Assembly: GCF_000022265.1 (NCBI RefSeq)
Contig: NC_011979.1
Location: 1,230,001 to 1,262,000 of the forward strand
DNA length: 32,000 nt
DNA from: Geotalea daltonii FRC-32
Lineage (GTDB): Bacteria; Desulfobacterota; Desulfuromonadia; Geobacterales; Geobacteraceae
Direction of reading: 5' to 3'
Of the stretch, positions 15,359 through 25,892 are shown one piece after another. The notes below the pieces were generated by a model, which saw nothing but the letters and a program-made list of their open reading frames with translations, was not told the DNA's origin and made no database searches. Numbering within the stretch: position 1 is the stretch's first letter; each line of letters opens with the position of its first letter. Both the position numbers and the translations under genes were made by a program.

Positions 15359-16591
15359 ATGGCAAAAATCAATGATAACTACCTGAAACTGAAAGCAGGC
15401 TATCTGTTCCCCGAAATCGGCCGCCGGGTGCGGGCTTTTGCCGAGGCCAACCCCTCTGCCAAGGTCATCCGTCTCGGCATTGGCGACGTGACCCGTCCCC
15501 TGGCCCCGGCTGTGCTGAAGGCTTTCCACGATGCGGTGGACGACCTGGCTACCACCGACAAGTTTGCCGGCTATGGCCCGGAACAGGGCTATGACTGGCT
15601 GATTAACGCCATCATCGACAAATCCTACAAGCCCCTCGGCGTTTCCCTCAAGACCGAGGAGATTTTCATCTCCGACGGCTCCAAGTGCGACTGCGCCAAT
15701 ATCCTCGACATCTTCGCCATGGACAACGTGGTGGCCATCGGCGACCCCGTCTACCCGGTCTACAACGACACCAACGTCATGATTGGCCGCACCGGTGAGG
15801 CCGACGAAAAGGGCTATTACAAGGGGATAGTCTACATGCCCTGTAACGAGGCCAACGGCTTCATCCCCGAGCTCCCCAAGGAGAAGGTGGACATCATCTA
15901 TCTCTGCTTCCCCAACAATCCCACCGGCACCGTGGCCAGCAAGGCCGAGCTGAAGAAATGGGTCGATTACGCCAACGCCAACGACGCCGTCATCTTCTTC
16001 GACGCCGCCTACGAGGCCTTCATCACCGATCCGTCCATTCCCCACTCTATCTACGAGATCGAAGGGGCCAAGAAGTGCGCCATCGAATTCCGCTCTTTCA
16101 GTAAGACCGCCGGCTTCACCGGCGTCCGCTGCGGCCTGGTGGTCGTGCCCGAAGAGGTGATGGGAACTACCGCTGACGGCGAGCGATACAGCTTCAACCG
16201 TCTCTGGCTGCGTCGCACCACCACCAAGTTCAACGGTGCCTCCTACCCGGTACAGCGCGCTGCTGCTGCCGTCTATAGTGACGAGGGATGGAAGCAGACC
16301 AAAGAGGTCATCGACTACTACATGGAGAACGCCCGCATCATTCGTGAAGGTTTGAAGGAAGTCGGCGTTACCGTTTTCGGCGGTGTCGATGCTCCATACA
16401 TTTGGCTCAAAACCCCAGGTGGCATGACCAGCTGGGACTTCTTCGACAAACTCCTCACCGAATGCAATGTGGTCGGGACGCCGGGCTCAGGCTTCGGGCC
16501 GAGCGGGGAGGGGTACTTCCGGTTGTCGGCCTTCGGTCATCGGGAGAATGTGATTGAAGCGGTGGAGAGGATAAAGAAGAACCTTAAGTAG
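15359..16591 (+). CDS. dapL: LL-diaminopimelate aminotransferase
   Basis: 410 aa starting [20 protein letters not shown], with NPTG and the PLP-Lys context [10 protein letters not shown], as in DapL-type aminotransferases. Confidence 0.92.
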
Positions 16592-16713: not shown

Positions 16714-17007
16714 ATGAGAGTTATCGCAAAGAAAACATTGCGCCAATTTTGGGAGAGATTTCCCGATGCAGAAGACGCCTTGAAATCCTGGCATGCAGAG
16801 ACGGAGGCTGCTGCGTGGCAAACCCCAGCTGAAGTAAAGGCACAGTTCCATAGTGCCAGCATTGTCAAGGATAGCAGGGTCGTCTTCAATATCTGTGGTA
16901 ACAAGTATCGGCTGGTGGTGAAGATAAGCTATAAAAATGGGATTGTTCTTATCAGGTTTGTCGGTACCCACAAGGAATACGACGCGGTAGATGTCGAGGT
17001 GGTGTGA
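16714..17007 (+). CDS. higB: HigB-family (RelE-fold) mRNA-interferase toxin
   Basis: 97 aa: MRVIAKKTLRQFWERFPDAEDALKSWH...VFNICGNKYRLVV...IRFVGTHKEYD. This matches the HigB toxin family pattern as I recall it. Confidence 0.85.
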   Translation: MRVIAKKTLRQFWERFPDAEDALKSWHAETEAAAWQTPAEVKAQFHSASIVKDSRVVFNICGNKYRLVVKISYKNGIVLIRFVGTHKEYDAVDVEVV

Positions 17008-18209
17008 TGATCCACAAAATCATAAAAAACGAAAACGATTATGCAATAGCCTTGGCCCGCATAGATGAGCTAATAGATGCCGATCTAGGCACCCCCGATG
17101 GAGATGAACTGGAACTGCTGGTTACACTGGTTGAATTGTATGAAAACAAGGCTCATCCTATCGGTTTTCCCGACCCCATCGAAGCCATTAAATTCCGCAT
17201 GGGACAGGCGGGACTGAAGCAGAAGGATCTCATACCGTTTATTGGCAGTCGTAGCAAGGTTTCCGAGGTATTATCGCGCCAGCGCCCACTGAGCATTGCC
17301 ATGATACGTAAGCTTCACGAGGGACTGGGAATCCGGGCGGAAGTTCTTTTGCGTGAGCCGGAAACCAAAGGTGTACCTGCTTCTGAAGGGATAGAGTGGG
17401 AACGGTTTCCCTTGGCTGAAATGGTCAAAAGGAAATGGCTGCCTCATTTTGAAGGCACTATTAACGAGGCAAAGAAGCAGATCGCCGAATTGATCGGTGG
17501 CTGGGCAGCCCATGTCGGTGCTGACACACTGCAGCCGGCACTTCTACGACAGCATGTGCGTTCTGGAAGTGAGGTAGATAACTATGCCCTGGCCGCATGG
17601 AGGATTCGGGTCTCGCTGCAGGCTCAGGAGCAGAAGATACCACGATATCAGCCAGGCACGGTAACAACAGACTTCATTCGTGACCTTGTCCGGCTGAGCT
17701 ACCTTGATAATGGGCCTCTTCTGGCTCGGGAATACCTTCTGAAGAGCGGTATCCACTTCGTGGTGGAAGAGCATCTTCCCCATACCCACTTGGATGGAGC
17801 TGCCGTAATGCTTCAGAACGGTTCACCGCTTGTGGCGTTGACCCTCCGCCACGACAGGCTGGACAACTTCTGGTTCACCCTGTGTCATGAGTTGGCACAT
17901 GTCGCGTTGCATTTTGATGGCGGGGAGTGTGATGCTTTCTTCGACGACCTTGACCAAGCAGAAATAGATTTATTCGAGAAGGATGCTGATCATTGGGCAA
18001 CTGAGGCGCTTATTCCGTCTGAACTGTGGCATGCAGCCGACATGGAACGAAACCCGTCGACGCGGAGGATTATCGACTTTGCAGCCAGTCTCAGGATCAG
18101 TCCGGCAATCCCTGCGGGCCGCATCCGTAAGGAAAAGCAGAATTACAGGATATTCAGCGGCCTGCTTGGCTATAAACAGGTGCGCACCTTAGTTATGCAA
18201 GGCATCTAG
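17004..18209 (+). CDS. HigA-like HTH antitoxin fused to an ImmA/IrrE (M78) zinc metallopeptidase domain
   Basis: The N-terminal ~120 aa resemble HigA antitoxins (ENDYAIALARIDELIDA..., then the HTH KQKDLIPFIGSRSKVSEVLSRQRPLSIAMIRKL). The C-terminal part has HELAH (LCHELAHVALH) and a downstream EKDADHWATEALIP, like COG2856/ImmA. The start overlaps the higB stop (GTGATG), so it may be GTG 17004 or ATG 17007. Confidence 0.82.
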   Translation: MMIHKIIKNENDYAIALARIDELIDADLGTPDGDELELLVTLVELYENKAHPIGFPDPIEAIKFRMGQAGLKQKDLIPFIGSRSKVSEVLSRQRPLSIAMIRKLHEGLGIRAEVLLREPETKGVPASEGIEWERFPLAEMVKRKWLPHFEGTINEAKKQIAELIGGWAAHVGADTLQPALLRQHVRSGSEVDNYALAAWRIRVSLQAQEQKIPRYQPGTVTTDFIRDLVRLSYLDNGPLLAREYLLKSGIHFVVEEHLPHTHLDGAAVMLQNGSPLVALTLRHDRLDNFWFTLCHELAHVALHFDGGECDAFFDDLDQAEIDLFEKDADHWATEALIPSELWHAADMERNPSTRRIIDFAASLRISPAIPAGRIRKEKQNYRIFSGLLGYKQVRTLVMQGI

Positions 18210-18463: not shown

Positions 18464-19426
18464 TTATCTAACATGGAGTTCCGATGTGTCCAGCTTGAAC
18501 TCGTCATATATTCCGAGTTTCTTCATTATGACAGGTAAGATTTGATGAATCGTTCTCATACCCATGAGGAGTTCATTAATATAAATATCTGGATGAATTC
18601 GCGAGGCGTTAAATCCCAGACTTTCGGCCTCAGCTTCATGTCCGAGGTCGTCATGGGAGTCAAAGACTAGCCCCAGAAGCTCTGCTCTCAACGGAACACC
18701 GGTGCGGAAGGCTCGATCTTTTACGATATTGATCCATTCTTCATAGTCCTTCAAAACTTTATGTCTGTGCTCTCTGAATTTAGGCGCAAATGCTTCGTCC
18801 ACATCAATCTTACAAGCAGCGAGATCTATCAGGCATGGCTCAATATTGTCAGCAGCTGTTCCTACTAACTCAAGATCATCGTCGTCTATCAGTTCAGCAA
18901 TATACGCGGCATAGAACCCGTAAACATCATTCAGTGATATGTAGATCTTGTAGATCAGAGCTGAATACGGGTTCTTCTCAAGAAAAACCGTAACTTCATC
19001 ACCAAGGCCATCGGTAAAAACATTATTGAAGTCGGTTTCTAATTCATCAGGGAATTTTTTAGGTATATCTACACCAATCTCCCTGAGAACATGGAATGTT
19101 TCCCAGCACAAAAGCCTCAGTTCGTCATTTAGGGAGTAAGTGTTGTATCCAGTTTCGGCATTTTCTATAGCAATCTCGGCCAGAAAATGAATGAGTTTTT
19201 CCCACTTATTCGCCTCTTGAAGAGAGCCTGCCCACAGCACGAACGAAGGGTCTTTGTCACCGATAGCCAAAATTTTTCGAAATTTTTCTTCCATTTCATG
19301 TGACATATGCTCTTTATTCTTCCATTTGCTGATTTGAGTGGGTGACACCCCGAGGCGAACAGCGAGTTCTTTCTGACTGCACGACAAAGTCTTCAACGCG
19401 AGTTGTACCAGGTCTTCAGTATGCAT
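18464..19426 (-). CDS. XRE-family HTH protein with a ~250-aa unassigned alpha-helical C-terminal domain
   Basis: N-terminus: LSCSQKELAVRLGVSPTQISKWKN (Cro/C1-type HTH). A GAAGGGAG RBS is present. The gene is markedly AT-rich: a hand count of one 60-nt line gives about 32% G+C, against about 65% for a line of argD. Confidence 0.8.
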   Translation of the reverse strand: MHTEDLVQLALKTLSCSQKELAVRLGVSPTQISKWKNKEHMSHEMEEKFRKILAIGDKDPSFVLWAGSLQEANKWEKLIHFLAEIAIENAETGYNTYSLNDELRLLCWETFHVLREIGVDIPKKFPDELETDFNNVFTDGLGDEVTVFLEKNPYSALIYKIYISLNDVYGFYAAYIAELIDDDDLELVGTAADNIEPCLIDLAACKIDVDEAFAPKFREHRHKVLKDYEEWINIVKDRAFRTGVPLRAELLGLVFDSHDDLGHEAEAESLGFNASRIHPDIYINELLMGMRTIHQILPVIMKKLGIYDEFKLDTSELHVR

Positions 19427-19448
19427 TTCGATACTCCCTTCATAGTAG

Positions 19449-19525
19449 TTTAGTAAAATCGCCTAATTTCTAGGTAATTTTACTTTTAACAATTATTTAG
19501 TAATTACGCAACTTAATTTAGTAAA
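19449..19525. promoter_or_regulatory. Three TTTAGTAA(A/T) repeats in the promoter region of the XRE gene (candidate operators)
   Basis: TTTAGTAAA at 19449-19457, TTTAGTAAT at 19496-19504 and TTTAGTAAA at 19517-19525. The last two are 21 bp apart. A further TAGTAAA lies at 19748-19754. One 60-nt line of the region hand-counts at about 23% G+C. Confidence 0.4.
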
Positions 19526-19631
19526 TTAGAATGTAAAAAGAATTTACATATTCCATCTGCATTGCGGCCCGCACCAAAGAACGAGGGTATAAGGGGATGG
19601 AGTCCGGTCTGGGCTTCCCGCCACATAGCGA

Positions 19632-19716
19632 AGGAAATGGGGTCAAGGAAATGGGGTCAAAAGGAAATGGGGTCAGGCTTTGCATTTAAAAGGAAATGGG
19701 GTCAGGCTTTGCATTT
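19632..19716. repeat. Left repeat array: 4x AGGAAATGGGGTCA, the last two extended to GGGGTCAGGCTTTGCAT
   Basis: Units start at 19632, 19646, 19662 and 19691. The 17-mer GGGGTCAGGCTTTGCAT is the exact reverse complement of ATGCAAAGCCTGACCCC, which is repeated at 21074-21258. Confidence 0.9.
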
Positions 19717-19781
19717 GGTGATTTGCCTGGTATAGTTGCCATAATTCTAGTAAATCTGCATGTATGTGTATGGGGGGAGAA

Positions 19782-20126
19782 ATGGCATTACCACAATTGG
19801 TAAAGCAGTTAGTCGAAAAGAAACTTTCCGACTACTGCAAAAGTAAAGTTTCGCCGGAGCTATCCGAGAAAATCCGCATGGGCTTTCGCATCAGACGTGA
19901 CAACGTGACCCTCTTTGAATCGCGCCCGTCTTTTCCAGAACCGAGTCATTGGGTTGAAATTCCTGTTGCCCAATTCCGCTTCGATCCTGGCACCGGACTG
20001 TGGACCCTGTACTGCGCAGACCGGAACTCCCGCTGGCATTACTATGTGGATGTAGATCCCAGCAAAAATCTTCAAAACTTGCTGAAGGAAGTTGACCAGG
20101 ATCCAACCGGCATATTCTGGGGGTAG
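19782..20126 (+). CDS. DUF3024-like small protein
   Basis: The C-terminal pattern LWTLYCADRNSRWHYY...LLKEVDQDPTGIFWG matches my recollection of the DUF3024 family. ATG 19782 follows GGGGGAGA; alternative ATGs are at 19764 and 19770. The stop lies 3 nt before the next gene. Confidence 0.65.
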   Translation: MALPQLVKQLVEKKLSDYCKSKVSPELSEKIRMGFRIRRDNVTLFESRPSFPEPSHWVEIPVAQFRFDPGTGLWTLYCADRNSRWHYYVDVDPSKNLQNLLKEVDQDPTGIFWG

Positions 20127-20129
20127 AAC

Positions 20130-21086
20130 ATGGCACGCAAGCCGCGTATCCATCATCCAGGCGCCTTTTACCACGTGATCCTCCGGGGCAACGGAAAGCA
20201 GGACATTTTCTTCGACGACCAGGACCGGTACCGCCTTTATTTGCTGCTGCAAGAAAGTGTTGAGCGCTTCCGATGCCGCATTCACGCATTCTGTCTGATG
20301 TCCAATCATATCCATCTGGTGGTGCAGGTGTCAGATATTCCCCTGTCACGCATCATGCAGAATGTTTCCTTCCGGTACACCCGCTGGATCAACTGGCGGC
20401 ATGATCGCTCGGGCCATCTTTTTCAGGGACGATATAAGGCCATTCTAGTCGATGAAGATGCGTACCTTCTGGAGTTAGTGCGCTATATCCACCTTAACCC
20501 CCTACGGGCGAACATGGTCAAAATTATCGGTGAATATCCCTGGATTGGCCATAATGCCTACCTGGGAAAGGAAAAGTTGCCTTGGCTGCATGCCGATACG
20601 GTTCTGGAAATGCTTTCTCCAAGAAAAAAGACGGCTATTGCAGCCTATGCTGGATTTGTCGAGGAAGGCTGTGCGGGACAGCGGAGATGTGACTTCCATG
20701 GAGAGGGCATATCCGACAGCCGGATATTGGGCGAAGAAGATTTTGTTCAAACTGTGATCGGGGATGCGGAGATGTTGCATGTCAGGATCACCGTTGAGGA
20801 TGTCATATCTACCGTCTGCAAATATTACGAGACGGTGGAGGAAAAGCTTGCCAGTCCGGGCAAGAGCCGTGCGCTGTCCCATGCTCGCGGTATGGCGGCG
20901 TGGATTGTTCAGGACGTGTCGAGCTGTTCGCTGACGGATTTGGGCTGTCGTGTCAGCAGGGATATATCTTCACTAAGTGCAGCGGCTAACCGGCTACAGT
21001 TGCGGTCAACATCAGAAAAGGCTCTCATGCGGGAGAAAGAGGAACTCTGGGCGAAGATGCAGCAAATAACCACATGCAAAGCCTGA
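20130..21086 (+). CDS. HUH/Y1 (IS200-like, REP-associated tyrosine transposase-like) protein with a C-terminal DnaA-domain-IV-like HTH
   Basis: The HUH motif is in CLMSNHIHLVVQ. The Tyr motif is RYIHLNPLRAN (compare E. coli RayT DYIYINPVKHG). The C-terminus ISTVCKYYETVEEKLASPGKSRALSHARGMAAWIV...SLTDLGCRVSRDISSLSAAANRL resembles DnaA domain IV. Confidence 0.8.
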   Translation: MARKPRIHHPGAFYHVILRGNGKQDIFFDDQDRYRLYLLLQESVERFRCRIHAFCLMSNHIHLVVQVSDIPLSRIMQNVSFRYTRWINWRHDRSGHLFQGRYKAILVDEDAYLLELVRYIHLNPLRANMVKIIGEYPWIGHNAYLGKEKLPWLHADTVLEMLSPRKKTAIAAYAGFVEEGCAGQRRCDFHGEGISDSRILGEEDFVQTVIGDAEMLHVRITVEDVISTVCKYYETVEEKLASPGKSRALSHARGMAAWIVQDVSSCSLTDLGCRVSRDISSLSAAANRLQLRSTSEKALMREKEELWAKMQQITTCKA

Positions 21087-21310
21087 CCCCAACTCAGACC
21101 CAACTCAGACCTGGGCGAAGATGCAGCAAATAACCACATGCAAAGCCTGACCCCAACTCAGACCCAGACCCAACTCAGACCTGGGCGAAGATGCAGCAAA
21201 TAACCACATGCAAAGCCTGACCCCAACTCAGACCATAACCACATGCAAAGCCTGACCCCAACTCAGACCTGACCCCAACTCAGACCCAACTCAGACCCAA
21301 CTCAGACCTA
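21047..21310. repeat. Right repeat array: 3.6 tandem copies of a 54-bp unit that begins inside the transposase-like ORF, plus 9 copies of AACTCAGACC
   Basis: CTGGGCGAAGATGCAGCAAATAACCACATGCAAAGCCTGACCCCAACTCAGACC occurs at 21047-21100, 21111-21164 and 21181-21234, with a partial copy at 21235-21269. The 10-mer AACTCAGACC starts at 21091, 21102, 21155, 21172, 21225, 21260, 21277, 21288 and 21299. Confidence 0.92.
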
Positions 21311-21673
21311 GTTATCCTTTTTATTTAGACATTCAACTAAATGTATAAAAATTTAATTCTGGTAAGCTCGATATATTGTTTGCAGTTCTGGGACATCTAC
21401 GATTGGCCTCCACCTGCCCGTCTAAGCTCGTCTGCCCCGCCTCCCCTCCCTGCTACCTCTTCTTTATTTCCACATCCCTTGCACGCTCTGCGTGCAATCC
21501 AGCCTCAATAATGCACGCAATGCATTGTAGTAATTTAATAAATATTTGCTATTGTGCCCCCGGCAGTCAATTTGTTCACGGCAAAAGCGGTAAATCTATC
21601 GGAAGGGAGGATCTGTCTGCGTCAGTAACACCAGTCTTTGCAGTGAACTCAACCCAAATTAAAGGAGGAAAAA

Positions 21674-22018
21674 ATGAAAAAGCTTATCTCATCGTTCGCT
21701 GTACTTACTCTGTTGGTTGCTGCCAATGCCTATGCCGGTGTCTGGAACCCATCGGTGCACATCTCGGAAATAGAAGTTAACAGTGACGTTGCAGGGGCGG
21801 GGTCGCGGGCTTTCCTCATTTTACAAGAAGGGGCGGCCAGCAAACCGGCTTGTGGTGCTGCAACGCCCTATGTTCAATTGCAGGGAACCACGGAAAATAT
21901 CCGCAATCTCATCGGTATCGCTACGACGGCATTTATCAATAGCCGGCCCGTTGGCGTCTTCTTTGACGGAACCTGCACCGGGCCTTATGCCAACGTCGCC
22001 GGTCTGGCCCTTCGCTGA
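21674..22018 (+). CDS. Small secreted protein (114 aa, 4 Cys), unknown function
   Basis: AAAGGAGG RBS. The signal peptide is MKKLISSFAVLTLLVAANAYA|GV. The mature part has no recognisable family. Confidence 0.7.
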   Translation: MKKLISSFAVLTLLVAANAYAGVWNPSVHISEIEVNSDVAGAGSRAFLILQEGAASKPACGAATPYVQLQGTTENIRNLIGIATTAFINSRPVGVFFDGTCTGPYANVAGLALR

Positions 22019-22278
22019 GGGGGTCAAGTCCTCTGGCTCGATGAGGTTTTCACTTGGCACTTAAATTAGTTTCCGTCCGGAAATGGTGCTTTTCCGCCCT
22101 AGCGGTGTCAATCTGCAGGATCGCTTGTGCGGCGTACCGATGTACGCCTCCGCGCATCCCTTGATTTTCTTGCCAGAACGAAAAATCCCTCCTTGCCGAT
22201 CCGGAAACCAAAAGTTTCACATCCGGAGTTTCCGGATGGAAACAAATTAAGAGACTAAGTCAACGTTTAGGAGGGAGC

Positions 22279-23019
22279 ATGCGGCGAACATCTTGGGCAA
22301 AGTTTTCATTATTATTGACTGGGGCGATACTGTTGCTGCCACTGCAAGGCTTTGCAGCAACTCAGATTTCCGTTTTACCGTTTACCATTTCGCAACCGGG
22401 TTCCTATGTCGTGTCACAAAATCTGACCAGCAGTGGTGATGGCATCAGTGTCCAGGCCAGCAATGTAGCCATAGACCTGAATGGGTTCACCCTTTCCGGC
22501 TCAGGTTCAGGAAATGGTGTAGTGGTAACTTCCGGGAGCAACATTCAAATCTCGAATGGAACGATAACAGGGTTCACATCAGGTGTAGAGGTGTCGGAAT
22601 GGAATAACAATGTCAGGGTCGCCAGTGTGAATGCTATAGGAAATAGCCTCTGGGGCATTCATCTGTTCGGCACGAACAACCAGGTTAAGGGATGCACGGT
22701 TACGGGCAGCTCATACATTGGCATCCGCGTGGGCAGTGGGTCCAGAGTTGAAGATAACAATCTCTTCAATAATGGCCATGGAATTATTGCTACCGATGGC
22801 AATACGACTATCGCAGGAAACACCGTGACCAGCAGCCTGTATAATGGCATTACCAATGGTGTGGCATGCCTGGTAAAAAACAATACCGTTACTTATAGTG
22901 CAAGTTATGGGATTGCGACCAATGCAGGGTCTTTGTACGACGGAAATGTAACATATGGAAACCTTGTGAACATTACTGGGTGTAGTAACTGTAGCTTCGG
23001 GCTTAATGCCCAGAATTAG
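22279..23019 (+). CDS. Secreted right-handed parallel beta-helix repeat protein
   Basis: TAGGAGGG RBS and signal peptide ...LLLPLQGFAATQ. Repetitive ~22-aa turns are rich in G/N/T/V: NGFTLSGSGSGNGVVV, NGTITGF, GIHLFGTNN, GIRVGSGS, GIIATDGN, NGITNG. Confidence 0.75.
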   Translation: MRRTSWAKFSLLLTGAILLLPLQGFAATQISVLPFTISQPGSYVVSQNLTSSGDGISVQASNVAIDLNGFTLSGSGSGNGVVVTSGSNIQISNGTITGFTSGVEVSEWNNNVRVASVNAIGNSLWGIHLFGTNNQVKGCTVTGSSYIGIRVGSGSRVEDNNLFNNGHGIIATDGNTTIAGNTVTSSLYNGITNGVACLVKNNTVTYSASYGIATNAGSLYDGNVTYGNLVNITGCSNCSFGLNAQN

Positions 23020-23305: not shown

Positions 23306-24427
23306 ATGTTTACCGAGGTATCGCCACGCGGCGGCAGGCTGGTGCTGCAGCAGAAAGGGCCGGACGGTTACAGCGCCTTTTTGCCCAACCCTCTGCCGCC
23401 AAATCCGCCGCTTCTGATCGACGACGAAATGAGCCGGCTGATGGAACTGGCGAACCGGGCGCTGGGGCGTCTGGACGGATGCACATATACGCTCCCCAAC
23501 CCGGACCTGTTCCTCTATATGTACGTCCGCAAAGAGGCGGTCCTCAGCTCCCAGATCGAGGGAACGCAGGCATCGCTGGACGATCTGCTGGCGTTTGAAG
23601 GCGAAATCGACGGGAAGAGTTCGTCTGACGACATCAACGAGGTATCCAATTACGTGGATGCCATGAATTACGGCCTTGAGTGGCTGCGGGAACTCCCCTT
23701 GAGCCTGCGGCTGATAAAGGAAATCCATGCTCGGCTGATGTCAGGCATCAGAGGGGGGCATAAGAGTCCCGGCGAGTTCCGGACGACCCAGAACTGGATC
23801 GGTGGCACCAGGCCGGGCAACGCCGCCTTCGTGCCGCCGCTGGCCAATGAACTGCTCTCCTGTCTGGGCGAGTTGGAGAAATTCCTGCACGATGAGACGG
23901 TACCGCCGCTGCTCAAGGCCGGCCTCGCCCATGCCCAGTTCGAGACTATCCACCCCTTCCTGGATGGTAACGGCAGAATGGGACGGTTGTTGATCGCTTT
24001 CATTCTCTGTCACGACCAGGTACTGGAAAAGCCGCTGCTGTACTTGAGCCTCTTTTTCAAGAAGCATCGCCAGGAGTATTACGAACGGCTCAATGCCGTA
24101 AGAAAGGATGGCGACTGGGAAGGGTGGATCAAGTATTATCTGCAGGGGGTCTATGAAATATCAAAACAGGCGACAGATGCCGCCAAGGCGATCATGGATC
24201 TGATGGCCGTCGACCGGCAGAAGCTGACAGGACTGGGGAAGGCGGCGCCCACTGCCATGGCTCTGCTCAATCTGCTCTATCGCCGTCCCTACGTGAGCAT
24301 CGCCATTGTCGCACGGGAGCTCGGCATCAGCTCACCGGCAGCGGGCAAGGCGGTCAACAACCTGGCAGCGCTCAGCATTCTGAAGGAAGTGAGCGGCAAA
24401 AAAAAGAGACCGGATTTTTCTCCATGA
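23306..24427 (+). CDS. Fic-family protein (class II, intramolecular inhibitory helix) with a C-terminal wHTH-like tail
   Basis: The Fic motif HPFLDGNGRMGR (HxFx[DE]GNGRxxR) is present. An N-terminal SSQIEG matches the [ST]xxxE[GN] inhibitory motif. AGGAG RBS. Confidence 0.9.
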   Translation: MFTEVSPRGGRLVLQQKGPDGYSAFLPNPLPPNPPLLIDDEMSRLMELANRALGRLDGCTYTLPNPDLFLYMYVRKEAVLSSQIEGTQASLDDLLAFEGEIDGKSSSDDINEVSNYVDAMNYGLEWLRELPLSLRLIKEIHARLMSGIRGGHKSPGEFRTTQNWIGGTRPGNAAFVPPLANELLSCLGELEKFLHDETVPPLLKAGLAHAQFETIHPFLDGNGRMGRLLIAFILCHDQVLEKPLLYLSLFFKKHRQEYYERLNAVRKDGDWEGWIKYYLQGVYEISKQATDAAKAIMDLMAVDRQKLTGLGKAAPTAMALLNLLYRRPYVSIAIVARELGISSPAAGKAVNNLAALSILKEVSGKKKRPDFSP

Positions 24428-24572: not shown

Positions 24573-25892
24573 TTACAGTTTCACATCCAGTTCATTCTGG
24601 AAAATTTGCTCACGCACCTGCTTTTTCCTGATCAGCACCAGTTCACCGCTGCAGGTTTTCATGACTGCCCCCGGCTTGCGGTGGGAGTTGTAATTTTCCG
24701 GTGACATGCTCTCGGAATAGGCCCCAGTGCCGCCAATGACCACATAGTCGCCGATTTCCGGTTCGATGATCATGACCGGCACGATATTGCCCTCCTTGTC
24801 CAGGCGCACCGAGTCGCCGCTTTCGCAGCAGCGGCCGACGATGCCGAAGGATTTAAGCCCCGCCGTGGGGGTCTGATCATACTCGCTGGAGAGTAAGGTG
24901 CTGTCCTGGCTTACGATGGCAATGGGATGCTCTGAGCCGTACAGGAGCGGGCGGGTCAAGAGTTCCATGCCGCCGTCGACGATGAGGAAATTCATGCCGT
25001 TGGTCAGTTTCTTATCGATGATGCGGGTGACGATATGGCCAGAGTTGGCTACCACATAGGTGCCCGGCTCGATCTCCATCTTCAGTTCCCGGCCGGTGGC
25101 CGCCTTGAATTCCTCAATCCGCTGCTTGGCATAGGCACCCAGGGAGGCGATGTCGGCCTGTTTTTCCCCCGGCATTCTGGCCACCTTCAGCCCGCCGCCA
25201 AAACTTACCGTGGTGGCATCGGGGAAGTAGGTCTTGACGAAGCCCAACTCTCGATCGATGTTCTCCCGCCATTTTTCCGGATCGCCACCGGAACCGATGT
25301 GCACGTGTACCTGGGTAAAGCGCAGCCCCTGCTCGGCGGCCAGGGCCTTGACCTTGGGAACATCGTTCAGATGGACACCGAAGCAGGAATATTCGCTGCC
25401 GGTGTCGCGGGTGGCGCTTTCTCCGCCGCCTGCTGCGCCCGGATGGACCCGGATCGACAGGTCGATAGTGTTGGCTTTGGCAAAGTCGGCAATCAGTTGA
25501 AACTGGGTCATGGAGCAGACGTTGTACTTGAGGCCTGCTTTGATCATCGACTCCAGTTCGGCGCGTTCCTCATCGGCCGGCACCTCCTGGGTGGTCAGCA
25601 TCATCCGGCTATAGGGAATGCCGGCGGCATGGGCACGGGCCGCTTCATCGACCGACGAGCAGTCCAGATCCAGTCCTTTGTTGGTGACGACCCGCAGGAC
25701 GGTGCGATCCGAATTGGCCTTCATGGCGTAGCGCACGTGCAGGCCGTAGGCGTTGGGCATGTTCAGCAGCTGTTCACAGCTGTTTTCGATGTATGCCTGA
25801 TCGTGCAGATATATCGGCGTTCCCCACTGCTGGGCAATTTGGGGGATGAGTGTTGCATCGAGTTTAGTCGGACCAAAGTGTTTCATCGTCAT
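24573..25892 (-). CDS. PLP-dependent Orn/DAP/Arg-decarboxylase-family (alanine-racemase fold) protein, LysA paralogue of uncertain substrate
   Basis: 439 aa with the PLP-Lys motif RYAMKAN, HIGSGG, SFGGGL and CCESGD. GAGGGTG RBS. It is clearly distinct in sequence from the lysA at 11493. Confidence 0.85.
   Translation of the reverse strand: MTMKHFGPTKLDATLIPQIAQQWGTPIYLHDQAYIENSCEQLLNMPNAYGLHVRYAMKANSDRTVLRVVTNKGLDLDCSSVDEAARAHAAGIPYSRMMLTTQEVPADEERAELESMIKAGLKYNVCSMTQFQLIADFAKANTIDLSIRVHPGAAGGGESATRDTGSEYSCFGVHLNDVPKVKALAAEQGLRFTQVHVHIGSGGDPEKWRENIDRELGFVKTYFPDATTVSFGGGLKVARMPGEKQADIASLGAYAKQRIEEFKAATGRELKMEIEPGTYVVANSGHIVTRIIDKKLTNGMNFLIVDGGMELLTRPLLYGSEHPIAIVSQDSTLLSSEYDQTPTAGLKSFGIVGRCCESGDSVRLDKEGNIVPVMIIEPEIGDYVVIGGTGAYSESMSPENYNSHRKPGAVMKTCSGELVLIRKKQVREQIFQNELDVKL

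Follow-up and report, generated by a model that had tools for sequence, protein, structure and literature searches.

A probable TIRtron carrying a DUF3024 gene between its left terminal repeat and its transposase gene

The segment at positions 19631-21310 of the window (the whole stretch of DNA that was analysed, 32,000 nt) is probably a TIRtron, a TIRYT-class element resembling an IS, with DUF3024 as one extra gene. In TIRYTs, also called TIRtrons, a gene encoding a Y1 domain and a Bac_DnaA_C domain lies between terminal inverted repeats (TIRs) that carry, in the majority type, the motif GGGGWSAS (Di Nocera 2013; PMC3733652). The class equals TnpA_REP subclass 2.1.2 of Quentin et al. (2018; PMC6006769), in which the C-terminal HTH extension is Bac_DnaA_C, HTH_23 or HTH_28. 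Judged by its domain architecture and TIR motif, the element fits this subclass. The initial annotation had presented the function of the module as undescribed; the element matches a class that is already published (PMC3733652; PMC6006769, subclass 2.1.2), and current understanding is left standing. DUF3024 follows the left terminal repeat and precedes the transposase gene, and the only oddities of this DUF3024-bearing TIRtron are the small extra gene and the fast-changing mini-repeat arrays at its ends. The features are as follows:

19631-19716, plus strand: left array, unit AAGGAAAT followed by GGGGTCA (flank plus TIR tip), at 19631, 19645, 19661 and 19690
19697-19726, plus strand: left TIR, innermost full copy, TGGGGTCAGGCTTTGCATTTGGTGATTTGC
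19708-19736, plus strand: promoter-like site TTTGCA-17-TATAGT, a consensus match with TG before the -10 box
19782-20126, plus strand: DUF3024 gene, 114 aa, inside the TIRs, read as a passenger or accessory gene
20130-21086, plus strand: TIRYT gene, 318 aa, Y1/HUH N-terminal and DnaA-domain-IV-like C-terminal part
21047-21310, plus strand: right array, 64/70-nt unit (last 13 codons, TIR and flank units), 2.8 copies
21062-21091, minus strand: right TIR, first copy, overlapping the final codons and stop of TIRYT

The two genes are separated by 3 nt, from the DUF3024 stop codon to the ATG of TIRYT, and Pfam and the coordinates agree with the earlier description of a DUF3024-like gene followed by a 318-aa HUH/Y protein. 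Profile searches with Y1_Tnp, Bac_DnaA_C and DUF3024, which had been proposed as a check, all gave matches. In the transposase, Y1_Tnp (PF01797) covered residues 14-121 with an E-value of 7.8e-17, and Bac_DnaA_C (PF08299) covered residues 222-286 with an E-value of 3.2e-8 (33.9 bits against a cut-off of 31.5). These matches bear out the claim that a HUH/Y1 enzyme of the RAYT branch is fused to an HTH like that of DnaA domain IV. H60 and H62 of the HUH motif and Y119 were invariant in 28 homologues. An AlphaFold2 model of the protein showed a low-confidence linker at residues about 190-217 and a C-terminal domain at residues about 220-310 that resembles DnaA domain IV. The model matched E. coli TnpA_REP (4er8_A), the closest solved catalytic domain, with a TMt of 0.77 and a probability of 1.00, and also matched the TnpA proteins of IS608 and ISDra2; against DnaA domain IV (3pvp), the TMt was 0.86-0.88 and the rmsd was 1.6-1.8. 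An alignment profile of the protein likewise found DnaA domain IV (3pvp, E of 2e-9) and TnpA_REP (4er8, E of 0.008).

The likeness to DnaA (3PVP, 1J1V) is confined to the fold that the last ~95 residues adopt (rmsd 1.6-1.8 Å). TIRYT differs from DnaA in having no AAA+ domain and in carrying DISSL where DnaA has the base-contacting DHTTV, and the repeats of the element are unlike the DnaA box TTATNCACA. An identity as DnaA was ruled out, as the AAA+ domain III is missing and the DnaA model TIGR00362 scored 38 bits, far under its cut-off of 343.9, on the C-terminal part only.

The 17-mer GGGGTCAGGCTTTGCAT occurs on the plus strand at 19669-19685 and 19698-19714 and on the minus strand at 21074-21090, 21138-21154, 21208-21224 and 21243-21259, with no chance matches expected (none in 100 shuffles). 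The initial annotation had counted two copies on the left and four inverted copies on the right; the counts are confirmed, but three of the starting coordinates were off by one. Repeat searches at the locus also upheld the view that inverted repeats and short tandem units bracket the gene pair, with AAGGAAATGGGGTCA present four times on the left and CCCAACTCAGA units on the right. The arms reach 30 nt at 93% complementarity (19697-19726 against 21062-21091, 21126-21155 and 21196-21225). The left TIR, TGGGGTCAGGCTTTGCATTTGGTGATTTGC, consists of the conserved tip TGGGGTCAGGC (GGGGWSAS) and then two imperfect 8-nt direct repeats, GCATTTGG and TGATTTGC; a shorter copy of 18 nt lies at 19668-19685. 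When tested against GGGGWSAS, the repeat tip GGGGTCAG agreed with the published consensus (PMC3733652). The last two unit copies of the left array are lengthened to a 29-nt unit, present twice (19659-19716), that bears the 17-mer. On the right side, where family members have the TIR at -8 to -27 from the stop codon, a 70-nt unit repeated 2.8 times duplicates the last 13 codons of the transposase gene. The right array further contains TIR copies at 21126-21155, 21196-21225 and 21235-21260, one tip-only copy (TGACCCC) and nine copies of the 11-nt unit CCCAACTCAGA.

These repeats are private to the locus. The 17-mer was found nowhere else in the complete 4.3-Mb genome (4,304,501 bases; one mismatch allowed), and the same search placed the short tandem units, those of the left array included, only here, barring one chance 13-mer. 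No hairpins were found at the element ends on either strand (folding z-scores of 0.0 to 0.5 against shuffles), and there was no Rfam match at E ≤ 0.1 in 19000-23000.

In a comparison with the TIRtron class (PMC3733652, PMC6006769), the element shares the Y1/HUH enzyme of the RAYT branch with its C-terminal Bac_DnaA_C-type HTH, terminal inverted repeats in place of hairpins, GGGGWSAS at the repeat tip, a right repeat that overlaps the 3' end of the gene, and repeats that are rarely or never dispersed through the genome. It differs from the class in the second gene (DUF3024) inside the repeats, for which we found no published description, in its unusually elaborate arrays with four tip copies on the left and four to five on the right, and in the re-duplication of the last 13 codons in the right array. 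The surveys report TIR dimers and clusters; tip-plus-flank arrays, the two inner 8-nt repeats and a promoter in the left repeat are absent from them (PMC3733652, PMC6006769). The G. metallireducens genome paper gives many multicopy sequences, and arrays of the present type are not among them.

The promoter-like site TTTGCA-17-TATAGT has its -35 box inside the left TIR, and its position is conserved in two related elements (L132 and L135). A promoter consensus search of the region returned 4 sites against 3.1 expected. Position and conservation suggest that this site may function as a promoter.

TIRYT genes are widespread. The genome contains about 8 paralogous copies or fragments, homologues were found in 56 of 61 genomes from the bacterial family, with as many as 17 matches in one genome, and the databases hold at least 7796 homologues, with the same two-domain architecture in most of the 120 listed. 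Source databases label these homologues "REP element-mobilizing transposase RayT". The earlier picture of a single-copy domesticated gene does not survive the paralogue and family counts.

Two sister elements in the same genome are each present in two copies, with 97.4% identity over 1095 nt for one and 99.6% over 1116 nt for the other. Their homology ends at the repeats, and identity in the Rhs DNA around them is down to 70-77%. No target duplication was seen at the borders of the sister elements, and no target-site motif was found at element borders beyond a T/A that extends the inverted repeat. The only recurring border bases, T before GGGG and A after CCCC, just lengthen the inverted repeat by one base. 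The copy at 19631-21310 is single in its genome, no empty site for it was found in 40 relatives, and the XRE gene together with the element had no nucleotide match in these 40 relatives; we therefore infer its own mobility from the sister elements.

Identity with the IS200/IS605 family was rejected: subterminal hairpins are absent, the IS200 model NF033573 (NCBIfam) scored 20.4 bits against a cut-off of 55. The fold itself is common to both. The element resembles IS608 and ISDra2 in the Y1 HUH fold of TnpA, in small size with one transposase, in having a second separable gene as some members do (tnpB is optional there), and in the lack of target-site duplication at the sister-element borders. 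It differs from them in its inverted-repeat ends, in having DUF3024 and not TnpB as second gene, and in a transposase that is twice as long and carries an HTH.

The arrays change quickly. Sister copies share the tip and differ in their right-hand units (CCATTCCGC versus CCAGAACTTA) or have 13 versus 3 copies of TCCCAAGGACCC. The short tandem units vary between near-identical sister elements and are therefore made in place; they are copies of the repeat tip and the local flank. On reading 40 TIRYT loci, without a separate count, we saw that in many of them tip-containing tandem arrays lie immediately outside the repeats. TRF reported some repeat in 32 of the 40. The inner 8-nt repeats of the sister elements are GACATTCGGACATTT and TTGCAAAGTTGCAAAG, and inner repeats and HTH helix sequence change together between element groups, a match that is confounded by common ancestry.

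The DUF3024 gene starts at the ATG at 19782 and encodes 114 aa, as in all homologues. It matched PF11225 with an E-value of 5.9e-35 (120.3 bits against a cut-off of 24.9; ORF residues 10-120), phrog_3467 with an E-value of 3e-8, and the PADLOC candidate PDC-S43 (PDLC05018) with an E-value of 3.7e-23 over positions 1-114 of 115. PDC systems are candidates picked for their location within BREX, DISARM or type I RM loci, and by the PDC-S43 match DUF3024 is a candidate anti-phage gene. A structure search with its AlphaFold2 model (pLDDT 89.3) gave no PDB or viral match at E ≤ 0.001, and a sequence-profile search of the PDB found nothing; the best structural match, XisI-like 2nlv (TM 0.40, E of 0.27), was too weak for use.

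DUF3024 had been described as an obligate-looking partner of the transposase, and co-occurrence across genomes showed that the pairing is rare. TIRYT adjoins DUF3024 in 4 of 80 DUF3024 loci; within the bacterial family, 18 genomes have DUF3024 and 3 of these show the two side by side. Most of the TIRtrons sampled, and all 8 paralogous copies or fragments in this genome, lack DUF3024. Either gene survives alone. Locus L135 retains only a remnant of DUF3024 (start and last ~20 codons) beside an intact transposase, DUF3024 is frameshifted in L133/L134, and L140/L141 keep DUF3024 and a right-repeat remnant after loss of the transposase. When the neighbours of the 80 loci were clustered, no neighbour cluster occurred in more than 6 loci. 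Where the two genes are paired, DUF3024 lies inside the repeats, and the distance from the left repeat to the transposase ATG changes from -44 to -55 in ordinary members to -415 to -434 in DUF3024 carriers. The same arrangement occurs in L028/L105, L103, L132, L022 and L031; in L022 and L031, DUF3024 occupies the same place (3-14 nt gap or small overlap) beside transposases that are 41-42% identical. Its recurrence at one place in diverged TIRtrons could reflect a functional tie and not chance cargo, and the spacing suggests that the two genes are probably translationally coupled. Other DUF3024 cassettes (PDC-S43; the phage 933W gene beside cI, ST933Wp24) belong to the same 113-115-aa family and likewise stand alone as one gene with changing neighbours, but they lie behind a phage repressor or in a type I restriction locus, and this one lies inside a Y1 transposon. 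DUF3024 is thus separable cargo, a promiscuous one-gene cassette, and the role of a required subunit is rejected.

We considered a RAYT proper, that is, a single-copy domesticated enzyme that makes and spreads its flanking repeats as REP/BIME-like elements. The best NCBIfam match of the transposase is REP_Tyr_transpos (E of 5e-20), E. coli TnpA_REP (4er8) is the best structural match, the databases use the RayT name, and inverted repeats surround the gene as in REPtrons; the E. coli enzyme (4ER8) shares the HUH motif, a YxxxNP-type tyrosine motif and a position between inverted cognate repeats. However, the NCBIfam score of 71.9 bits is under the curated equivalog cut-off of 80, the ends have no palindrome, REP hairpin or GTAG tag, and the 17-mer (one mismatch) and short units form no genome-wide repeat family, being confined to one locus of a complete genome. 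In addition, TIRYT has the extra HTH and about 8 paralogues, and its sister elements move as whole gene-containing units. We rejected RAYT/REPtron identity on the missed cut-off, the absent hairpin and GTAG tag and the undispersed repeat. REP dissemination, as first suggested, is contradicted by the absence of the 17-mer elsewhere in the genome, even though the Y1 match stands, and we regard this reading as very improbable.

It is unlikely that DUF3024 and TIRYT form a dedicated two-gene module, for example for defence or ssDNA processing, with a nuclease effector, DUF3024 as sensor or regulator, and the repeats as regulatory binding arrays and not transposon ends. The tight 3-nt spacing, with GGGGG of the last DUF3024 codons as a putative ribosome-binding site, the recurrence of the arrangement, the PDC-S43 match and the flanking PD-Lambda-2_B-like and SoFic genes (PADLOC) would accord with such a module, but close relatives keep either gene without the other, no TIRYT lies near DUF3024 in 76 of 80 and 15 of 18 loci, most TIRYT genes lack DUF3024, and TIRYT itself had no PADLOC match. 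It appears quite improbable that the element is a relic, decaying or domesticated, with a gene that the host retains at a fixed site as a DNA-binding regulator and with arrays due to ordinary microsatellite slippage. In favour of a relic, the element is single-copy, recent movement of this copy has left no direct sign, its tip is rich in G/C and there is microhomology among the units. Against this, HUH and Tyr are intact and invariant, both ORFs are intact, both TIRs are 93-100% matched, the island is variable, the searched genomes of the same genus showed no synteny for the locus, and tip-containing arrays sit at the TIR tips and just outside them among the 40 loci surveyed.

For the TIRtron reading, we propose the following mode of action. 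The ends are TIRs with a family-wide tip, TGGGGTCAGGC, and two element-specific 8-nt direct repeats; the conserved catalytic domain would act at the tip and the variable HTH would read the 8-nt repeats, so that every element would have ends of its own. The promoter with its -35 box in the left repeat would drive DUF3024 and the transposase, so that a transposase bound there would also act as repressor of its own operon. Y1 elements move without target duplication. A block of about 1.1-1.7 kb moves whole and without target duplication in the sister elements, and would do so here. DUF3024 rides as separable cargo in a cassette that is known also behind phage repressors and in restriction loci. 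The arrays combine the tip with the DNA just outside, arise on the spot and evolve fast; they likely result from rounds of nicking and rejoining at the tip, or from repair synthesis there, and plain replication slippage, with no need for an enzyme, is an alternative.

A bolder reading, which we hold only tentatively and consider doubtful, is that the tip-plus-flank arrays are footprints of TIRYT and that DUF3024 is a true accessory of a TIRtron sub-lineage. Each array unit would then correspond to one nick-and-rejoin or repair-synthesis event of TIRYT at its own end, and array growth would therefore be a readable record of Y1 activity. DUF3024 would be the anti-phage cargo of a single-strand transposon or a factor controlling the transposase, and the element would be the first TIRtron with cargo, its left repeat supplying a promoter and operator of its own.

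TIRYT elements are very common, as the database and family counts above indicate, and this locus and its relatives supply concrete parts: a conserved tip that is the likely cleavage site, two 8-nt repeats that are the likely HTH target, a predicted promoter inside the left repeat, and hypervariable arrays that may be indicators of activity. As the locus also demonstrates, a passenger gene is possible in a TIRtron. With a defence candidate as passenger and a defence island as the element's location, the locus bears on the movement of small defence genes. The divergent XRE regulator, first listed among the module's unusual points, is an unrelated neighbour; XRE, M78, a secreted protein, a beta-helix protein and Fic were all rejected as parts, none being conserved beside other TIRtrons. 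The island is variable, spans 8 kb between two conserved genes, shows a dip in GC and ranges from 570 bp to 13 kb in relatives.

The element at 19631-21310 carries two genes between inverted repeat arrays. Pfam searches confirmed the initial reading of the pair as a DUF3024 gene and, 3 nt further on, the gene of a HUH/Y1 protein with a DnaA-like C-terminus, hereafter TIRYT.

Features of the element
19669-19685 and 19698-19714, + strand: 17-mer GGGGTCAGGCTTTGCAT, left side
Left array: unit AAGGAAATGGGGTCA, four copies
19782 (start), + strand: DUF3024 gene, 114 aa (PF11225, E 5.9e-35)
20130-21086, + strand: TIRYT gene, 318 aa (Y1_Tnp and Bac_DnaA_C)
21074-21090, 21138-21154, 21208-21224 and 21243-21259: complement of the 17-mer GGGGTCAGGCTTTGCAT, right side
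Right array: 11-nt unit CCCAACTCAGA, nine copies

The start at 19782 gives DUF3024 the length found in all its homologues. In the 318-aa protein, Pfam detected Y1_Tnp (E 7.8e-17) and Bac_DnaA_C (33.9 bits, cut-off 31.5), and H60 and H62 of the HUH motif and Y119 within RYIHLNP were invariant across 28 aligned homologues. The profile of this alignment matched solved structures of DnaA domain IV (3pvp, E 2e-9) and of E. coli TnpA_REP (4er8, E 0.008). An AlphaFold2 model (pLDDT 84.6) showed two domains of high confidence with a disordered linker between them; its best structural match was 4er8_A (TMt 0.77), followed by the IS608/ISDra2 transposases, and its C-terminal domain best matched DnaA domain IV (TMt 0.86-0.88, rmsd 1.6-1.8 A). 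The segment DHTTV with which DnaA reads its box is replaced by DISSL in TIRYT; thus, the DNA target of the TIRYT helix-turn-helix (HTH) is expected to differ from the DnaA box. The inverted arrays of the 17-mer stood as first described, with two copies on the left and four on the right, after three coordinates had been corrected by one; no copies are expected by chance in shuffled sequence. The inverted arms are 30 nt long and match at 93% (19697-19726 versus 21062-21091), and the right side continues with two further full copies of this terminal inverted repeat (TIR) and then one of 26 nt. Rather than independent motifs, the short units are the outer end (tip) of the TIR, complete (GGGGTCA) or partial, joined to the 8-11 nt immediately outside.

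Together, these features identify a real, intact TIRtron, an element with TIRs. Quentin et al. (2018; PMC6006769) treat TnpA_REP subclass 2.1.2, which has a Bac_DnaA_C-like C-terminal domain and lacks a nearby REP, as equivalent to the TIRYT/TIRtron elements that Di Nocera et al. (2013; PMC3733652) described. TIRtrons carry terminal inverted repeats at both sides, with GGGGWSAS common to many (Di Nocera et al., 2013; PMC3733652), and the counterpart of this motif here is the tip GGGGTCAG. The element therefore belongs to a published class and is not the undescribed module proposed earlier. At least 7796 homologues were found at E <= 1e-10, named "transposase" or "RayT" in the source databases; most of the best 120 listed have both domains. 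TIRYT matches occur in 56 of 61 Geobacteraceae genomes, with a maximum of 17 per genome, and the closest relatives are Geobacter and Geobacteraceae records. The possibly new features are modest, namely a passenger gene carried within a TIRtron, arrays formed in place, two inner repeats of 8 nt that vary with the HTH, and a putative promoter in the left repeat.

A REP/RAYT system was ruled out on four grounds. Neither the 17-mer, with one mismatch allowed, nor any of the short units was found outside this locus in the complete genome (4,304,501 bases), so the REP-like spread suggested for the 17-mer does not occur. On both strands the element ends folded no better than shuffled sequence, and the score against the NCBIfam RAYT model (71.9) fell below the cut-off of 80. 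Finally, the genome holds about eight paralogous TIRYT copies or fragments, at odds with a single-copy domesticated enzyme.

The window element is itself single-copy in the genome. Two sister TIRtrons each have a near-identical second copy, and partial copies are also present.

Sister element pairs (genome coordinates)
1144033-1145123 and 4070051-4068961: 97.4% identical over 1095 nt
1146749-1147864 and 4080827-4079712: 99.6% identical over 1116 nt

The homology ends at the repeats or arrays, and the surrounding Rhs/YD-repeat DNA is just 70-77% identical; the sister elements are therefore discrete units that recently moved or were copied. No target duplication was visible at their borders; none is expected for Y1 elements. 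These two different TIRtrons, with two copies each plus fragments, lie among Rhs/YD-repeat genes at two distant sites (C1:1142229-1147864 and C1:4068961-4080827; loci L008-L011, L014 and L015).

The sister copies are 97-99.6% identical, yet their arrays differ. In one sister element the right array consists of CCTGACACC+CCATTCCGC units in one copy and of CCTGACACC+CCAGAACTTA units in its counterpart, with a copy-specific flanking portion, and the left unit is common to both copies but differs in copy number; in the other sister element, TCCCAAGGACCC occurs 13 times in one copy versus three in the other. The closest relatives again have different array units. These differences indicate that arrays arise where the element sits and evolve far faster than point substitutions. 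Among 40 oriented TIRYT loci (the paralogues of this genome, 29 Geobacteraceae loci and four from the DUF3024 search), TRF reported some repeat in 32, and by an uncounted reading of the TRF table many have tip-plus-flank arrays, each with its own unit. Larger duplications combine the repeat with inside sequence: in the window element, the 64/70-nt unit of the right array repeats the last 13 TIRYT codons plus the TIR. At L022 (3918-4233), a 164-nt tandem duplication that takes in the left TIR plus the initial ~24 DUF3024 codons mirrors this right-end duplication. The arrays sit at the repeat tips, which makes recurrent nicking and rejoining, or tip-primed repair synthesis, a more likely cause than the alternative, slippage on the G/C-rich tip.

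Across the 40 loci, the left repeat usually begins 44-55 nt upstream of the ATG and the right one overlaps the stop codon; most members share the tip TGGGGTCAGGC. The tip is followed directly, on its inner side, by two 8-nt direct repeats whose sequence varies by element group: GACATTCG/GACATTTG, TTGCAAAG twice, CAAGTTGA twice or TGCAATTA twice, and GCATTTGG/TGATTTGC in the window element. Group by group, identical inner repeats go with an identical HTH helix: RD(I/A/V)(T/S)ALGK(A/L)AQR pairs with GACATT(C/Y)GGACATTT, and RDVT(T/S)LSSSITRL with TTGCAAAG. This agreement fits an HTH that would act as the element-specific reader and a catalytic domain that would read the common tip; because shared ancestry could give an equal pattern, we infer these roles conditionally. 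By consensus match, the left repeat contains the -35 box of a promoter-like site (TTTGCA-17-TGgTATAGT), in a position kept in the relatives L132 and L135, and autoregulation through this putative promoter would be reasonable.

The initial annotation saw DUF3024 as an apparently obligate partner of the transposase, which its wider distribution contradicts. Among the best 80 DUF3024 loci in a species-representative genome collection, TIRYT lay directly downstream only at L022, L028 and L031; at L052 DUF3024 directly follows a TIRtron and lies beyond the repeat of that element. No neighbour was conserved in these 80 loci: type I HsdR, HTH proteins and the rest occurred at six loci or fewer each. 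DUF3024 was found in 18 of 87 Geobacteraceae genomes, three of these copies adjoining TIRYT, and this genome has one DUF3024 versus about eight TIRYT copies or fragments. Many DUF3024 genes (loci L017-L096) are close to a contig end, at a distance of a few hundred bases or less, which suggests that neighbouring repeats or mobile DNA break the assemblies.

Where paired, DUF3024 sits inside the repeats, and the left repeat is shifted to positions -415 to -434 relative to the ATG of the transposase gene. In the nearest TIRYT homologues, at 60-69% identity, pairing is common, not fixed: DUF3024 is present beside P0126 (L132), frameshifted beside P0129 and absent at P0142 (L136) and L104. At P0131 (L135; about 750-900) the transposase is intact and only a start and the last ~20 codons of DUF3024 are left; L140 and L141 (about 1501-1900) keep DUF3024 and, within 30 nt, the right-repeat remnant ATATGCAGAGCCTGACCCC, and have lost the transposase gene. 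These decay states show that each gene survives without the other. L140 and L141 share a common host site in two genomes, in a state reciprocal to that of L135. We read DUF3024 as cargo of the TIRtron. A functional tie to TIRYT is possible, as the arrangement recurs in TIRtrons just 41-42% identical (L022, L031) and translational coupling is likely. DUF3024 itself is 56-58% identical to the window copy in L022 and L031, and 59-67% identical where the transposases are 63-66% identical (L103, L105). Such values hint that the cassette may have been exchanged between TIRtron lineages or captured independently. DUF3024 matches phrog_3467 and PADLOC PDC-S43 (E 3.7e-23), PDC systems being candidates only, found within BREX, DISARM or type I RM loci; in phage 933W a DUF3024 gene adjoins cI. 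Its predicted fold (pLDDT 89.3) is a helix, a five-stranded sheet and a helix, and the model had no significant structural neighbour.

Two conserved genes (ORFs 15359-16591 and 24573-25892) enclose the ~8-kb stretch that contains the element. In relatives the length of this stretch ranges from 570 bp to about 13 kb; here it has lower G+C. No empty site was found among 40 relatives compared.

Features beside the element
16714-18209: HigB-like 97-aa ORF overlapping a 401-aa HTH and M78 peptidase protein, a defence-type module
18464-19426, divergent: XRE-type gene
23306-24427: Fic protein with Fic_N, Fic and a C-terminal winged HTH (PADLOC SoFic, E 3.2e-121)

The 401-aa protein is a full-length match to PADLOC PD-Lambda-2_B (E 2.2e-146). 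The HigB-like gene and the PD-Lambda-2_B-like and SoFic matches thus mark 16.6-24.5 kb as a small defence island with the element inside. Neither the XRE-type gene nor the other neighbours occur beside the other TIRtrons compared, which removes the XRE regulator from the module. Between a small secreted-protein gene and a beta-helix gene, 22064-22250 holds a dispersed ~185-nt repeat with ~40 near-full copies (83-87% identical) and ~20 partial ones in the genome; most genomes of the family and of the order likewise carry many copies. Rfam gave no match to this repeat, which could represent either a MITE or a structured leader; its RNA fold is strong (-66.3 kcal/mol, z -4.3) and pairs the two ends.
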